Assembly: GCA_012800195.1 (NCBI GenBank) | Contig: JAAZJU010000018.1 | Span: forward strand, 1-36,526 | Source of the DNA: Clostridia bacterium | GTDB lineage: Bacteria; Bacillota; Peptococcia; Peptococcales; BICA1-8 | Direction: 5' to 3' | Length of the DNA stretch: 36,526 nt | Part shown: piece by piece, positions 21,620 to 35,158 of the stretch | How positions within the stretch are numbered: position 1 is the first letter of the stretch | How the letters are laid out: the number at the start of each line of letters is the position of its first letter | Made by a program: the position numbers and the translations under genes | Notes under the pieces: model-generated | The model's database searches: none | Seen by the model: only the letters and a program-made list of their open reading frames with translations | Told to the model about the DNA's origin: nothing

Positions 21620-22006
21620 ATGTTAGCCATAATTGCTGGAACCTTGGCGGCTTTAGGAGCCTGGGGTCTTAATTGTTTATTGGTCAAACGCTGGGGCGAT
21701 AGGGCAGTTTCAGTTTTGGTTCCAGTGGTTGAGGAAGTGTTGAAAACTCTATTGGCCTTTTCTTTTAATAGTCTTATTATCCTTAGTCATTTTACCTTTG
21801 GGATAATCGAGGCTATTTGGGATATTAAGACCTGTGAGAGGGGCTTAAAACCAGGGCTAATAGGTATTATCACCCATATTGGTTTTGGTTTGATAACTAT
21901 TTTAGTTTGGGAATTAACGGGCTTCTTAAGTCTAGCCATTCTGGCCAGTATTCTTGCCCATATAACTTGGAACAGTATCATCATCAAGAAAGCTAACAAA
22001 ATTTAA
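21620..22006 (+). CDS. Small polytopic membrane protein (128 aa) with EExxK and HxxxN motifs
   Basis: Four hydrophobic segments. VVEEVLK lies in the second and AHITWN in the last. RBS AGGAGAAG. Confidence 0.5.
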   Translation: MLAIIAGTLAALGAWGLNCLLVKRWGDRAVSVLVPVVEEVLKTLLAFSFNSLIILSHFTFGIIEAIWDIKTCERGLKPGLIGIITHIGFGLITILVWELTGFLSLAILASILAHITWNSIIIKKANKI

Positions 22007-22078: not shown

Positions 22079-25000
22079 ATGCAGGTACCACCAATTATAA
22101 AAACCCTCAGTAAAGCTTCTGATATTAGCTTAATTTTAAAGGCCATTAGAGAAAAACCAGAAAATCTAATTTATGGATTAACTGGCGTTCAAAAGACCAT
22201 CCTAGCGGCCCTAATCGCCGATAACCAAGAGAAGAATATGCTAATTATTTGCGATGGCTCTAAAAGGGCTAAGGAGATTTGGCAAGACCTGAATTTTTTA
22301 TTGCCTAAAGGGGAAGTTTTATATTTCCCAGCTTTAGAGATAATTCCCTATGAAGTTTTGGCTCAAAGCCCAGAAATTCAAAGGCAAAGACTACAAGTAA
22401 TGGCCAATTTAGCCCAAGGGAAAAGGACCATTGTTATTTGTTCTATAGAGGCCTTAGGTAAAAAATTAATTCCACCAGAAATTTTTAGCCAGAGTATTCG
22501 GAATCTAAAGGTAGGCAATATCCTTAATTTAGAGGAATTTATAAAATATCTTTTAGATTTTGGTTATGAAAGGGTGGAGCAGGTCGATAGCCCCGGACAG
22601 TTTAGCCTACGGGGTGGTATAGTAGATATTTTTTCTGTACTGTACGATCAACCCATAAGGATTGAACTCTTTGATGATGAAATAGATTCTCTGCGTTTTT
22701 TTGATATAGAAACCCAGAGGTCTTTAGATAAGGTTCAGGAGGTAAATCTAGTTGCAGCCAGGGAATTTTTCCTCCAAGAGGAAGCCTTAAAAAGAGGAGT
22801 AGCCAATATAGAAGAAGAGTTTCAGATTCAAAAACAAAGATTAGAGAAGAAGAATCGGGCTGCTTTAGAAAGGTTAACTAATAAATTTAATGAAATCATA
22901 GAAAGGGTTAAAAACGGCCTCTATTTTTCTGGTCTAGATCAAATGCAACCTTATTTTTATCCACAGCAGGCTTTGCTTCAAGATTTCTTCCCTGAGGATA
23001 GTGTTTTTATCTTAGATGAACCTTTAAGAATAAATGAAACGGCATTGCATCTAGAAAAGGAAAGGCAAGAAAGTTTCAAGGATTTATTGGTAGCAGGTAG
23101 TCTTTTGCCAGGGCAGAACCAATACTTTTCTGAATTATCAGAAATATCAAAGGCCATGGAAAAGGGGAAAAGAGTCTATTTATCTCTCTTGCCGAAAAAA
23201 GGTATGAGTGGTTCTGTAGAAAACATGTTTGGTTTAGAAACCAAATCCTTACCACCCTTTTTTAGTAAAATTAGGTTTCTAGCTGATGAAATTAAAGAAT
23301 GGAAAAGGAAAAAATATGCGATTGTAGTTTTAGTCACCTCTTCTAGCAAAGGAGAAAGATTAAAACAAGCCCTCTTTGACTGTGGGGTAGAAGCTGTACA
23401 GGTTGGAGAGGATTATAACCCCCAATTTGGGCAGGTTCAAATAGCTTCTGGCAATTTAAGCTCTGGGGCGGAGTTTGTTAAAGCCAAAACAGTGATAGTC
23501 ACCGAGAATGAAATCTTTCAACAGACCACTAAACGCCAACCTAGAAAGATGTTCCATGAGGATGGCCAAAGAATTTCTAGGCTAGAGGAATTACAAGTAG
23601 GATCCTATGTAGTTCATAGTAGTCATGGGATAGGTCGTTATTTAGGAGTAGAAAAGTTACAGGTCGGTGATATCGAAAAGGATTATTTAGTAATTAAATA
23701 TGCTGGGGAAGACAAGCTATATGTCCCCACTGAACAAGTGAATCTGTTGCAGAGATATATAGGCCATGAGGGAACGGTACCTAAGGTTCATAAACTGGGA
23801 GGAACAGAATGGCACAGGGTTAAAACTAAGGCCAGTTCTTCGGTTAAAAAGTTAGCAGAAGGACTTTTAGAACTATACGCTAAAAGGCAGAGTTATCCTG
23901 GCTTTGCGTTTAGTCCTGACGATAATTGGATGAGGGAGTTTGAGGATCTCTTTCCTTATACAGAAACCCCTGATCAGTTAAAAGCAATAGAAGAAGTAAA
24001 AAGGGATATGGAAAAGTCTATACCTATGGATAGGCTTATTTGTGGTGATGTGGGTTATGGTAAAACAGAGGTTGCTATTCGCGCAGCCTTTAAAGCTGTT
24101 AATGATGGTAAGCAGGTTGCTCTTTTGGTACCCACCACAGTATTAGCTCAACAGCATTTTAATACTTTTAGAGAAAGATTTAATAATTATCCCGTGACCA
24201 TTGATGTTTTAAGTCGTTTTAGGAGTAGCAAAGAACAAAAAAACATCATTGACAAGGTCAAAAGTGGTGCTATCGATATTATCATAGGTACTCATCGTCT
24301 ATTGTCAAAAGATATTGTTTTTAAAGATTTGGGGCTTTTAATAGTGGACGAGGAACAACGCTTTGGAGTCAACCATAAGGAAAAACTAAAAAGACTAAAA
24401 TCTCAAGTGGATGTCTTAACTCTCTCGGCTACTCCCATCCCCAGGACCCTTAATATGTCACTAGTAGGTATTAGGGATATGAGTGTTATTGAAACTCCTC
24501 CCGAGGACCGTTATCCTATTCAGACATATGTGGTGGAACATAGTCCTAATTTAATTAAGGATGCTATTCGTAGGGAATTAGGCAGGGGTGGCCAGGTTTT
24601 TTATGTCCATAATAGAGTTGAAGATATAGACAAAATTGCTGAAGAGGTGAGGTCTTTAGTTCCTGAAGCTAGAGTTGCTACTGCCCATGGTCAAATGAAG
24701 GAGACTTATCTAGAAAATATAATGCTACAGTTTATGGAGCAAGAAATAGATGTCTTAATCTGTACCACCATAATTGAAACAGGCTTGGATATCTCTAACG
24801 CCAATACTTTAATCATCAATGAAGCTGATAGATTAGGCCTTTCTCAGCTTTACCAATTAAGGGGACGGGTAGGGAGGACTAATCGGGTGGCTTATGCCTA
24901 TCTTACCTATAAAAAAGAGAAAACTCTCTCGGCTATAGCAGAAAAAAGACTACATGCTATTAAAGAATTTACGGAACTAGGCTCAGGCTTCAAAATTGCT

Positions 25001-25603
25001 ATGCGAGATTTGGAGATAAGGGGGGCGGGTAATTTATTAGGGCCTGAACAACATGGACAGATTTCTGCTGTAGGTTTTGATATGTATTGCAAAATGTTAG
25101 AAGAAGCCGTTCAAGAATTAAAAGGTATTGCCAAACCAGAGGAAATAACTATTGAAATAGATCTAAAGGTTAGTGCTTTTATTGATAATAAATATATTTC
25201 AGACCATGGAACTAAGTTGGATCTATATCAGCGGATACGTTTGGCTAAGAATATGGAGCAGGTTGATGATATCGAGGATGAGCTGGTGGATCGTTTTGGT
25301 GATATTCCTTTAGAAACTTATAATCTCTTGAAAATAGCTAGATTAAAGGTCCTGGCTTTGAATTCCAGAATAAACGGCATTGAACAAAAGGGACAAATGA
25401 TTACTTTAAGTTTTTATCAGGACCCAGGGCTAACGGGCTCTCAATTAATGGATTTAGCTCAGCGGTTTAGGAGAAGACTTAGTTTTTCTGCTGATAAAAA
25501 CTTAAAAATTAAAATAAATATTGCCCGGTTGGGACAAGAGGATATTTTTAAATTATTAGAAAGGATTTTAAAGGAAATATCCACCCTTGTATCCCAGAAG
25601 TAA
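22079..25603 (+). CDS. mfd: Transcription-repair coupling factor
   Basis: 1174 aa with a UvrB-homology N-region, an RNAP-interacting CarD-like domain (GSYVVHSSHGIGRYLG), superfamily-2 helicase motifs (GDVGYGKTEVA, DEEQRFG, TATPIPRT) and a TRG motif. Confidence 0.95.
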   Translation: MQVPPIIKTLSKASDISLILKAIREKPENLIYGLTGVQKTILAALIADNQEKNMLIICDGSKRAKEIWQDLNFLLPKGEVLYFPALEIIPYEVLAQSPEIQRQRLQVMANLAQGKRTIVICSIEALGKKLIPPEIFSQSIRNLKVGNILNLEEFIKYLLDFGYERVEQVDSPGQFSLRGGIVDIFSVLYDQPIRIELFDDEIDSLRFFDIETQRSLDKVQEVNLVAAREFFLQEEALKRGVANIEEEFQIQKQRLEKKNRAALERLTNKFNEIIERVKNGLYFSGLDQMQPYFYPQQALLQDFFPEDSVFILDEPLRINETALHLEKERQESFKDLLVAGSLLPGQNQYFSELSEISKAMEKGKRVYLSLLPKKGMSGSVENMFGLETKSLPPFFSKIRFLADEIKEWKRKKYAIVVLVTSSSKGERLKQALFDCGVEAVQVGEDYNPQFGQVQIASGNLSSGAEFVKAKTVIVTENEIFQQTTKRQPRKMFHEDGQRISRLEELQVGSYVVHSSHGIGRYLGVEKLQVGDIEKDYLVIKYAGEDKLYVPTEQVNLLQRYIGHEGTVPKVHKLGGTEWHRVKTKASSSVKKLAEGLLELYAKRQSYPGFAFSPDDNWMREFEDLFPYTETPDQLKAIEEVKRDMEKSIPMDRLICGDVGYGKTEVAIRAAFKAVNDGKQVALLVPTTVLAQQHFNTFRERFNNYPVTIDVLSRFRSSKEQKNIIDKVKSGAIDIIIGTHRLLSKDIVFKDLGLLIVDEEQRFGVNHKEKLKRLKSQVDVLTLSATPIPRTLNMSLVGIRDMSVIETPPEDRYPIQTYVVEHSPNLIKDAIRRELGRGGQVFYVHNRVEDIDKIAEEVRSLVPEARVATAHGQMKETYLENIMLQFMEQEIDVLICTTIIETGLDISNANTLIINEADRLGLSQLYQLRGRVGRTNRVAYAYLTYKKEKTLSAIAEKRLHAIKEFTELGSGFKIAMRDLEIRGAGNLLGPEQHGQISAVGFDMYCKMLEEAVQELKGIAKPEEITIEIDLKVSAFIDNKYISDHGTKLDLYQRIRLAKNMEQVDDIEDELVDRFGDIPLETYNLLKIARLKVLALNSRINGIEQKGQMITLSFYQDPGLTGSQLMDLAQRFRRRLSFSADKNLKIKINIARLGQEDIFKLLERILKEISTLVSQK

Positions 25604-33948: not shown

Positions 33949-33966
33949 GATTTTCATGAGGAGTGG

Positions 33967-33997
33967 GTCGGTCTAAGGGACTGACTTTCTCTTTTTT
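33967..33997 (+). terminator. Probable terminator after yabQ
   Basis: GTCGGTC taagg GACTGAC followed by TTTCTCTTTTTT. Confidence 0.7.
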
Positions 33998-34046
33998 AAA
34001 AATAATGGTTTTTTTAGGCAGGAGTTTTTCTATTTAGCTAGAACTA

Positions 34047-34108
34047 TGTGGATAAGTAATAATATTGTAGACAAATTGTCCACACATTGTGGATAACCCT
34101 GTGGATGA
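34047..34108. promoter_or_regulatory. Cluster of four DnaA boxes
   Basis: TGTGGATAA (34047-34055, perfect), TTGTCCACA (34076-34084, one mismatch to TTATCCACA), TGTGGATAA (34088-34096, perfect) and TGTGGATGA (34100-34108, one mismatch). Boxes 2 and 3 form a convergent pair separated by 3 nt. Confidence 0.75.
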
Positions 34109-34132
34109 ACTACCAGAAAATGGTGAAACTTT

Positions 34133-34351
34133 ATGAAGATGGAAATACGAGGTGTGGAAAAGCTGAGTTTTAGAGAAAGACAAGTGGTGGCCCTCAAAGA
34201 AACTGGTAATTCCAATGAAACTATAGCTAAAAAATTAGGCTTAAGTCCCAGTACGGTGGCAACTTTATATAATAGGGCCAGAGGAAAGGGTTATGAAGTA
34301 GTTATTGTTGTTCCTGGAGCTGTCTTAGGTTTGGTGGAGGATGATGAATAA
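34133..34351 (+). CDS. Single-domain LuxR/GerE-type helix-turn-helix protein (72 aa)
   Basis: LSFRERQVVALKETGNSNETIAKKLGLSPSTVATLYNRARGKG follows the GerE/LuxR pattern (L[ST].RE..V...........IA..L..S..TV). Weak RBS (GGTGA) 6 nt upstream. Its TAA stop shares one base with the divIC ATG (TAATG). Confidence 0.6.
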   Translation: MKMEIRGVEKLSFRERQVVALKETGNSNETIAKKLGLSPSTVATLYNRARGKGYEVVIVVPGAVLGLVEDDE

Positions 34352-34677
34352 TGGATCGAAGAGAAAAGCCTAAGAGAAGAACTAGAAAAAGCAAGGGCAA
34401 AATGATAGGGCGGAAATTAATGACCCTGATTTTAGGGAGCCTAATTTTCTATTTAGCCTTTAATTTTGGACAAGGCTTTTATCAAATACACCAATTGAAA
34501 AAAGAGCTCTCCGCTTTAGAGCAAGAGTATACTGAACTTCAAGAGATTAACAATGAACTATTGAATGAAGTGGAATACTTACATAGCCCCGAAGCTATAG
34601 AAAAAATAGCCCGAGAAAAGCTAGGTTTAATTAAGGAGGGAGAAATTGTCATCATGCGGGCTAGAGAAGCCGATTAA
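34351..34677 (+). CDS. divIC: Septum formation initiator DivIC/FtsB family
   Basis: Basic N-tail, a single TM (LMTLILGSLIFYLAFNF), a coiled coil, and the conserved C-end IEKIAREKLGLIKEGEIV. Confidence 0.85.
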   Translation: MDRREKPKRRTRKSKGKMIGRKLMTLILGSLIFYLAFNFGQGFYQIHQLKKELSALEQEYTELQEINNELLNEVEYLHSPEAIEKIAREKLGLIKEGEIVIMRAREAD

Positions 34678-34683
34678 TAATTC

Positions 34684-34711
34684 TTGACTTTGGTCTTGGG
34701 GGAGATATAAT
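34684..34711 (+). promoter_or_regulatory. Sigma-A-type promoter candidate for yabR
   Basis: TTGACT (34684-34689), 16-nt spacer, TATAAT (34706-34711). Confidence 0.55.
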
Positions 34712-34773: not shown

Positions 34774-35133
34774 ATGTCCATTGCAAAAGGGCAAATTGTA
34801 GAAGGTGTTGTAACCGGTATTACTAATTTTGGAGCTTTTATTGAATTACCAGGAGGTATAACAGGCTTAGTTCATATTTCTGAAGTGGCGGATACCTATG
34901 TAAAAGATGTTAATGATTTTCTCAAGGATCGGGATAAGGTAAAGGTTAAAGTAATCAATATTGATGATAAAGGAAAAATAGGCTTATCCATTCGGCAAGC
35001 TAAGGTTAAACCTAAAAAGCCTGATATATCTTTTGAAGATAAACTTTCCAAATTCATTAAAGATAGTGAGGAAAAATTAGCTTTCCTCAAAAAGAATACA
35101 GAACAAAAAAGAAGAAGAAACAGTAGATCCTAG
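34774..35133 (+). CDS. yabR: S1-domain RNA-binding protein YabR
   Basis: G.IVEG.VTGITNFGAFIELPGGITGLVHISEVAD.YVKDV is an S1 domain, with a basic tail. Syntenic after divIC. Confidence 0.85.
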   Translation: MSIAKGQIVEGVVTGITNFGAFIELPGGITGLVHISEVADTYVKDVNDFLKDRDKVKVKVINIDDKGKIGLSIRQAKVKPKKPDISFEDKLSKFIKDSEEKLAFLKKNTEQKRRRNSRS

Positions 35134-35158
35134 CACCCAGTTTGGGTGCTCTTTTATT
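35132..35158 (+). terminator. Rho-independent terminator after yabR
   Basis: AGCACCCA gtt TGGGTGCT followed by CTTTTATT. Confidence 0.85.

Follow-up and report, generated by a model that had tools for sequence, protein, structure and literature searches.

Conserved DnaA boxes in an 11-nt phased array ahead of a mini-HTH/divIC transcription unit

Does a cluster of DnaA boxes that stands directly ahead of a cell division gene serve the replication initiator as a control site, or is it the work of some other protein? The question is raised by a 36,526-nt stretch of DNA from a Clostridia bacterium (GTDB lineage Bacteria; Bacillota; Peptococcia; Peptococcales; BICA1-8; NCBI GenBank assembly GCA_012800195.1, contig JAAZJU010000018.1, positions 1 to 36,526 of the forward strand), which we refer to as the window (36.5 kb). 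An earlier note on this DNA, made from the letters alone, had described four DnaA boxes (two perfect and two with one mismatch, a convergent pair among them) within 62 nt, located between the terminator of the sporulation gene yabQ and the start of a small helix-turn-helix (HTH) gene that forms a unit with divIC. All four boxes were recovered in that position, as was the lone further perfect box that it had placed inside mfd (22957-22965, within the Mfd/TRCF open reading frame (ORF) 22079-25603); the window holds neither dnaA nor oriC. We found that boxes are conserved at this place in many anaerobic, spore-forming Firmicutes, distant ones included, where they occupy the gene-proximal end of an array with an 11-nt period. 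By a modest balance of probability, the cluster appears to be a conserved cis-regulatory operator set between a SigH-type promoter and the ribosome-binding site of a mini-HTH/divIC/yabR transcript.

The box cluster and its conservation

The sites that make up the cluster in the window are the following:

34047-34055, minus strand: perfect DnaA box (0 mismatches), TGTGGATAA in plus-strand letters, between the -10 element and the predicted start site
34055-34065, plus strand: aGTAATAATAT, a degenerate array unit that shares the 11-nt phase of the units that follow, as read from the sequence
34066-34074, minus strand: array unit TGTAGACAA, equivalent to a DnaA box with two mismatches
34076-34084, plus strand: DnaA box TTGTCCACA, one mismatch, convergent with the box at 34088
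34088-34096, minus strand: perfect DnaA box TGTGGATAA (0 mismatches), the conserved anchor site
34100-34108, minus strand: DnaA box TGTGGATGA, one mismatch, 12 nt past the anchor box

Across the window, boxes with at most one mismatch number 19, compared to 10.6-11.1 expected. The densest 62 nt hold the four boxes of the cluster, and no more than two were found together in any of 300 dinucleotide-preserving shuffles. DnaA-regulated promoters are recognized by at least three matches to TTATCCACA with at most one mismatch in ~100 bp, beyond chance, and four boxes in 62 nt agree with that pattern.

To describe conservation, we scanned 250 nt ahead of the HTH start codon in each of 80 retrieved loci, two of which (L040, L078) come from complete genomes, with dinucleotide shuffles as the control. 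Boxes with at most one mismatch occurred 123 times compared to 5.7 ± 2.3 in the shuffles (maximum 13), and perfect boxes 49 times compared to 0.27. At least one box was present in 56 of the loci and at least two in 38, with a perfect box likewise in 38. Upstream of the HTH gene the density was 5.6 boxes per kb compared to 0.32 elsewhere in the same loci, and a control spacer (3' end of divIC/upstream of yabR) contained a single box across the entire set. The most enriched upstream 8-mer found de novo was TGTGGATA, present in 68% of loci and in 0.6% of background segments. Independent metagenome contigs (20 loci scanned, none >80% identity) gave a similar picture, with boxes in 16 of 19 loci and a density of 8.3 versus 0.34 per kb; P0001 (94% identity) lies on a contig beginning 8 nt before the gene and was hence unusable for footprinting. 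The earlier note had staked its proposal on the boxes persisting in orthologous spacers, and they do so both in the 80 species and in the metagenome loci.

Boxes are retained in genomes of 37-73% G+C and in Sulfobacillus, Desulforudis, Thermincola, Syntrophomonas and Peptococcaceae, with an orientation bias of 91 versus 32. In the closest relatives, TTGTCCACA, TGTGGAT.A and CTG.GGAT.A form invariant blocks, the position of the box at 34100 is occupied by TGGGGATAA, and the convergent pair itself appears to be conserved across species. The box at 34047 is specific to the window's lineage: it is absent in relatives and arose through a 3-nt TGT insertion. A further one-mismatch box, TGTGGAAAA at 34153-34161, lies in the HTH coding sequence over conserved G-V-E-K codons; because an equivalent match recurs at +20 in loci L010, L020, L040 and L069, it is probably an incidental by-product of the protein sequence.

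Promoter, transcript and phased array

The signals that frame the cluster are the following:

33965-33997, plus strand: terminator-like hairpin (33965-33987) and T run after yabQ (shfA), with a 10-pair stem and a T-rich tail
34020-34026, plus strand: SigH-type -35 element AGGAGTT, its AGGA invariant in close relatives
34038-34044, plus strand: SigH-type -10 element CTAGAAC, with GAA at 34041-34043
34122-34126, plus strand: ribosome-binding site GGTGA of the HTH gene, with TGGTG invariant in close relatives
35132-35150, plus strand: terminator-like hairpin closing the transcription unit, where RNA contigs end (35103-35139)

The motif AGGA-N17-GAA occurs at a fixed place upstream of the boxes in 62 of 81 loci, compared to a background of 0.15 per 220 nt. 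In the window, AGGAGTT and CTAGAAC place 17 nt between AGGA and GAA and agree with the SigH-dependent pattern that we used (-35 AGGAwwT, -10 (G/A)TAGAAT or TCGAAT, AGGA and GAA 17-18 nt apart). The SigH promoters that have been mapped in C. difficile consist of AAGGAwwT, a spacer and TGTAGAAT or GTCGAAT, with the start 9-11 nt beyond (PMC7438776 Table 3), so that the predicted start in the window falls at ~34053-34055, inside the box at 34047. This conserved motif at 34020-34043 displaces the promoter that the earlier note had considered the only plausible one, TAGACA-18-GATAAC (TAGACA at 34068, GATAAC at 34092). We rejected that candidate because it is not the conserved promoter motif and its start would lie at ~34104, whereas RNA contigs from four runs begin at 34072-34079.

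RNA contigs from four metatranscriptomes extend from 34072, 34075, 34079 or 34148 to 35103-35120, a fifth run contains one beginning at 34075, and the contigs span the HTH gene, divIC and yabR as one. In runs X25-X29, RNA contigs were found neither on yabP-yabQ nor across the post-yabQ hairpin; run X30 has a low-depth contig within yabQ. Because contigs cover HTH-divIC-yabR, and none in X25-X29 covers yabP-yabQ, the unit has a transcript of its own, which begins upstream of 34072, and the hairpin parts the sporulation genes from it. The boxes at 34047-34108 overlap or adjoin the promoter and start region of this unit, and in every arrangement of the locus the boxes are found either inside the promoter core or downstream of it.

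Two other features of the transcript can be recorded here. A near-consensus SigA-type promoter, TTGACT-16-TATAAT (11/12), is found at 34684-34711 between divIC and the S1/yabR gene, and the depth of the run X30 contig climbs from 4.4 to 11.4 at ~34692; yabR may also have a promoter of its own, despite the longer RNA contigs that it shares with HTH-divIC. A short out-of-frame ORF of 17 codons (34120-34173, with its ATG at 34120) runs across the ribosome-binding site and the HTH start. Its ATGGTG is conserved in close relatives, which may only reflect the GGTG of the ribosome-binding site.

Spacing between TGT trinucleotides in the leaders is sharply periodic, with 169 pairs at 11 nt, 118 at 22 nt and 71 at 33 nt and only 2-3 pairs at 10 or 12 nt (background 0.015 per segment). 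Three to seven units, of consensus tTGTA(c/g)(a/t)nAnn, are present in each leader; those of the window begin at 34055, 34066, 34077, 34088 and 34100 (steps of 11, 11, 11 and 12 nt), which puts the TGT of TTGTCCACA (34077) in phase with the array. At least three TGT at exact 11-nt steps were found upstream of the HTH gene in 66 of the 80 loci; the 455 kb of loci and the window contain no other such series. Tandem Repeats Finder detected no array, because the units are too divergent and the period is visible only as TGT spacing across species. An 11-bp period, that is, 9-mers 2 bp apart, is also the spacing of oriC-type cooperative DnaA-ATP arrays.

Among units with at most one mismatch to the DnaA consensus, 41 are the last of their array and 19 the second to last; such DnaA-like units are a class of their own, situated at the gene-proximal end. 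By our own arithmetic, the profile of the non-box units would yield TGTGGATAA in about 1.5e-4 per unit, compared to at least 36 in-phase perfect units among 320. Directly ahead of the first perfect box, one or two units are best taken as inverted TTGTNCACA boxes; their mismatches average 2.3-2.9, compared to 4.3-4.9 in distal units. In the Thermincola locus L013 (2918-2963), three to four tandem TTGTACACA units are periodic on the opposite strand too (palindromic TGTACA cores), and self-complementary units are common in other loci as well (TTGTACAA, TGTGCACA).

One lineage of 12 loci (L026, L029, L042, L043, L051, L052, L054, L059, L060, L061, L069 and L076) has a consensus DnaA box in none of them. 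All 12 keep a TGTA array of four to five units that ends exactly 18 nt before the start codon, and most have the SigH-type promoter. We ruled out that these are HTH paralogues without divIC: each HTH gene is followed by a divergent protein with a transmembrane (TM) segment and a coiled coil (106-198 aa, mostly ~146-154 aa), usually with overlapping stop and start codons, and the one that was scanned, from L051, matched Pfam DivIC at E = 7.7e-5. In L051, a glpX fructose-1,6-bisphosphatase gene comes after the DivIC gene. The HTH recognition helix is practically identical between box-free and box-bearing species. Because this lineage keeps the array with an unchanged helix, the array appears to predate the DnaA boxes or to be more general than they are, and its TGTA units are probably read by a factor other than DnaA.

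A second variant is found in a clade mostly labelled Sulfobacillus (L023, L046, L073, L074, L080, also L038 and L068), in which a SigA-type promoter, (G)TGAC-N17-TATAAT, replaces the SigH-type one. In five of these loci a DnaA box (TGTGGATAA, TGTGGATAT or TGGGGATAT) lies within the promoter spacer; a second perfect box stands ~20 nt before the start codon and six phased units fill the entire leader. The SigA-type promoter is at about -105 to -75 from the HTH start. In four Desulfotruncus- or Desulfocucumis-like loci (L019, L047, L063, L067), yabQ ends 1.1-1.4 kb before the HTH gene, such that extra DNA or a gene is inserted (about -1450 to -1080), and consensus boxes near the HTH gene are absent or reduced to one weak match.

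Candidate binders and rival explanations

Taken together, we lean, if only by a little, towards DnaA binding and regulating the HTH-divIC unit in the species that carry boxes. The earlier note had proposed a DnaA-controlled promoter here and had given sda as an example, which implies activation. Conserved boxes at a promoter are in keeping with the proposal; activation does not fit, since boxes at or downstream of the start site suggest repression, and a box geometry running from +1 to the ribosome-binding site predicts it. DnaA, probably as DnaA-ATP, would occupy the gene-proximal boxes TTGTCCACA, TGTGGATAA and TGTGGATGA when free initiator is high, and the lineage-specific box at 34047, at the start site, would add to the bound set. 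Binding would probably be cooperative, favoured by the 11-bp spacing, and bound DnaA would block initiation or early elongation, lowering the SigH-driven supply of DivIC and of the regulator. A boost of DivIC in stationary phase or at the onset of sporulation would in this way be gated by initiator availability, tying division to replication status.

The same scheme has room for a second protein, proposed because the array, the promoter and the HTH-DivIC pair persist box-free in 12 loci. It would bind the distal TGTA-type units and is most plausibly the co-inherited mini-HTH acting as an autoregulator, a candidate because of its confidently predicted DNA-binding fold and because the array is unique to its own leader. 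The mini-HTH would then share the phased operator with DnaA or compete for it; that a second binder, most plausibly the HTH protein itself, shares the operator is probable.

Several points weigh against control by DnaA. In about 30% of species, one whole lineage among them, operon and array are kept although consensus boxes are missing, and the unit can thus do without DnaA control. Distal units disagree with the DnaA consensus in 4-5 of their 9 positions in either reading, and it is the TGT phasing, not DnaA, that accounts for the conserved G of TTGTCCACA. The RNA contigs begin 17-26 nt past the start predicted for the SigH-type promoter, an offset that would fit a loss of transcript ends during assembly but proves nothing; these contigs are strandless assemblies from steady-state metatranscriptomes without 5'-end chemistry, and their ends are imprecise. 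Finally, the eight operons under direct DnaA control and the listed chromatin immunoprecipitation (ChIP) targets in B. subtilis do not include divIC (PMC8203912).

A more ambitious version, in which the cluster is a dedicated replication-to-division checkpoint of non-Bacillus spore-forming Firmicutes, strikes us as rather unlikely. DnaA-ATP would nucleate on the consensus boxes just upstream of the ribosome-binding site and spread along the 11-bp array back to the SigH promoter, silencing the translationally coupled mini-HTH/DivIC operon. The mini-HTH would recognize TTGTA units and act there either against or together with DnaA, perhaps at oriC boxes as well, and the resulting two-input switch would time septation against initiation. 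These Firmicutes are not known to have Sda.

Among the rivals to DnaA control, the strongest holds that the whole array is the autoregulatory operator of the mini-HTH or of another dedicated regulator, bound by monomers head to tail every 11 bp, and that the likeness to DnaA boxes is incidental. It accounts for the universal presence of the strict 11-nt array, the 12 loci without consensus boxes included, for the restriction of the array to this leader and for the gene directly behind it, which encodes what is confidently modelled as a DNA-binding HTH; the TTGT with which nearly every unit starts would also explain the conserved G of TTGTCCACA. We nevertheless consider it distinctly unlikely. 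An incidental likeness would have to produce the 9/9 DnaA consensus 49 times where 0.27 are expected, and the perfect boxes are a separate unit class without conservation of their flanks. The recognition helix is essentially the same with or without TGTGGATAA units, hence that motif is not what the HTH needs, and the Sulfobacillus loci hold an additional box outside the array, in the spacer of their SigA-type promoter. Covariation between the recognition helix and the units was not a feasible approach, as the helix is nearly invariant.

Alternatively, the cluster could be mainly a DnaA sink of the B. subtilis DnaA-box cluster (DBC) or E. coli datA kind, which tunes the timing of initiation and affects the adjacent genes little. 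Several strong boxes are closely spaced here, and the mfd-spoVT-yabPQ neighbourhood is origin-proximal in B. subtilis. The six clusters outside oriC in that species jointly affect initiation timing, but DBCs with a major role were not found (PMC5295017). The cluster is small (2-5 boxes), and even in very distant genomes the boxes keep their place relative to promoter and ribosome-binding site, independent of what is found upstream, a geometry that titration alone does not need; we therefore regard this explanation as quite improbable.

Control by the sporulation master regulator, with the repeats as Spo0A sites (0A-box, TGTCGAA) or as reiterated SigH -10-like elements, seems very improbable. 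In many loci the first unit is TGTAGAA or TGTCGAA (L029, L031, L042, L044), and 0A boxes resemble and overlap DnaA boxes at the B. subtilis oriC (PMC5295017). However, TGTAGAA or TGTCGAA is a normal SigH -10, which accounts for the first unit; TGTCGAA occurs nowhere in the window; and most units are TGTAC or TGTCC, off the 0A consensus at its C and G positions. At abrB, tandem 0A boxes have a spacing of 10 nt, compared to a period of 11 nt here. Consensus sites of WalR (TGTWAH-N5-TGTWAH), PhoP, TnrA and SpoIIID, in an informal comparison, misfit the unit profile at discriminating positions.

Hardly credible, too, is an RNA element in which UGUA repeats of the transcribed leader or a UUGUCCACA/UGUGGAUAA hairpin bind an RNA-binding protein or mask the ribosome-binding site: most of the array is transcribed, the convergent pair could form a 9-bp hairpin and the operon encodes an S1-domain protein, but the leader folds no better than shuffles (z = -1.38), there is no Rfam match (window at gathering threshold; spacer at E up to 10), many loci have no inverted pair or arms that do not compensate, and exact 11-nt helical phasing with an exact DnaA consensus points to recognition of duplex DNA.

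The unit, its neighbourhood and known systems

The genes downstream of the cluster are the following:

34133-34351, plus strand: mini-HTH gene, 72 aa, with a three-helix DNA-binding core of the LuxR/GerE or sigma region 4 type and two flanking beta strands
34351-34677, plus strand: divIC, a divisome protein of the FtsB/DivIC family, its start overlapping the HTH stop codon
34774-35133, plus strand: yabR-like S1-domain gene, present on the HTH-divIC RNA contigs

The pairing of HTH and divIC, which the earlier note had treated as a unit, extends across the examined loci. DivIC was recovered by tblastn in 55 loci, and an ORF with a TM segment and coiled coil follows the HTH gene in 24 of the 25 others; in nearly every locus the HTH stop codon overlaps the start of this DivIC-like bitopic protein, which suggests translational coupling and a functional pair. 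Pfam scans gave the gene order prs, L25, pth, a 128-aa ORF, mfd, PPIase, spoVT, MOP flippase, mazG/yabN, HU, S4 protein, spoIID-like, yabP, yabQ, the cluster, HTH (GerE/Sigma70_r4_2), DivIC, S1 (yabR-like) and Ppx/GppA. The 128-aa ORF (21620-22006, between pth and mfd) had no Pfam match at E up to 1e-5. Several loci (L001, L002, L005, L007, L011, L017, L020 and others) keep HTH-divIC-yabR-ppx with no yabP or yabQ within 3 kb upstream, and in L001 amino-acid ABC transporter genes stand in their place. It is the HTH gene, rather than yabQ, to which promoter, array and boxes are linked. Sequence of the window is present in biogas and anaerobic-digester metagenomes.

The mini-HTH represents an uncharacterized family of high conservation. 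Its matches number more than 1196 database proteins, and among the listed best 120 the identity is 70-94%. A GTDB-based collection contains relatives in 510 species genomes, and no curated NCBIfam family covers the mini-HTH or reaches its cut-off. It matches Pfam GerE at E = 1.3e-8 across 35 of 57 positions. The structure model (predicted local distance difference test (pLDDT) 91) has three helices flanked by two beta strands, one strand replacing the fourth helix of the LuxR type, and superposes to ~1 Å on the DNA-binding domains of NarL, VpsT, GerE and sigma region 4, with Foldseek E values of only 0.05-0.3.

The locus offers a sharply defined and deeply conserved target, with perfect boxes across classes of Firmicutes and site phasing in the style of oriC at a promoter. 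Its location before a core divisome gene and an uncharacterized regulator, behind a transition-phase promoter, opens the question of a link from replication to division to direct tests in anaerobic spore-formers, and it brings to attention a widespread small HTH protein coupled to DivIC.

How does this arrangement compare to known systems? A link from replication to division has a precedent in B. subtilis, because DnaA there binds the promoter of ftsL, whose product is the DivIC partner (PMC8203912); in the collection of papers searched, we found none linking DnaA boxes with divIC. Like the DnaA-regulated promoters of B. subtilis (dnaA, sda, ywlC, yydA, trmE and others), the cluster has several near-consensus TTATCCACA boxes at a promoter, conserved in orthologous regions. 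Unlike them, it precedes an operon, mini-HTH-divIC-yabR, that is not among known targets and begins with an HTH gene not found outside these lineages, its promoter is of the SigH type, and its DnaA sites are predicted ones, placed from +1 to the ribosome-binding site in an 11-bp phased array. The Sda checkpoint of Bacillus resembles it in having DnaA boxes at a developmental or division decision at sporulation onset (PMC8203912). There, however, DnaA activates a kinase inhibitor from upstream boxes, whereas the geometry here predicts repression of a divisome operon, and Sda has no homology to the proteins of this unit.

At the E. coli oriC, low-affinity DnaA-ATP arrays consist of 9-mers 2 bp apart that guide cooperative binding (Rozgaja et al. 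2011, summarised in PMC6727663). The array here shares their 11-bp period, and its convergent arrangement recalls their strong sites beside progressively weaker ones and their opposed orientation. It differs in lying in a promoter and leader rather than an origin, in having distal units too far from the consensus for confident DnaA sites and in persisting without a strong anchor box in one lineage. The overlap of Spo0A and DnaA sites at the B. subtilis oriC, where two regulators use related TGT-type motifs (TGTCGAA and TGTGNATAA), provides a precedent for a shared or competitive operator (PMC5295017), although the second motif here is TTGTA(C/G)(A/T)nA and not a 0A box, and the site is a promoter leader and not an origin.

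For autoregulation by the mini-HTH, the model is MraZ. The unit resembles the MraZ system in that a small DNA-binding protein comes first in an operon with a bitopic divisome gene, with phased repeats ahead of it. MraZ heads the dcw operon (mraZ-rsmH-ftsL) and has phased direct repeats in its own promoter and leader; its fold is unrelated to the LuxR/sigma-4-type HTH of the window, the repeat motif is different, and binding by the HTH is a proposal here. Judged by its sequence, the cluster has the attributes of a DnaA-controlled promoter, a theme that is already known; what is new is the target operon, the SigH context and the 11-bp phased array embedded in the promoter.

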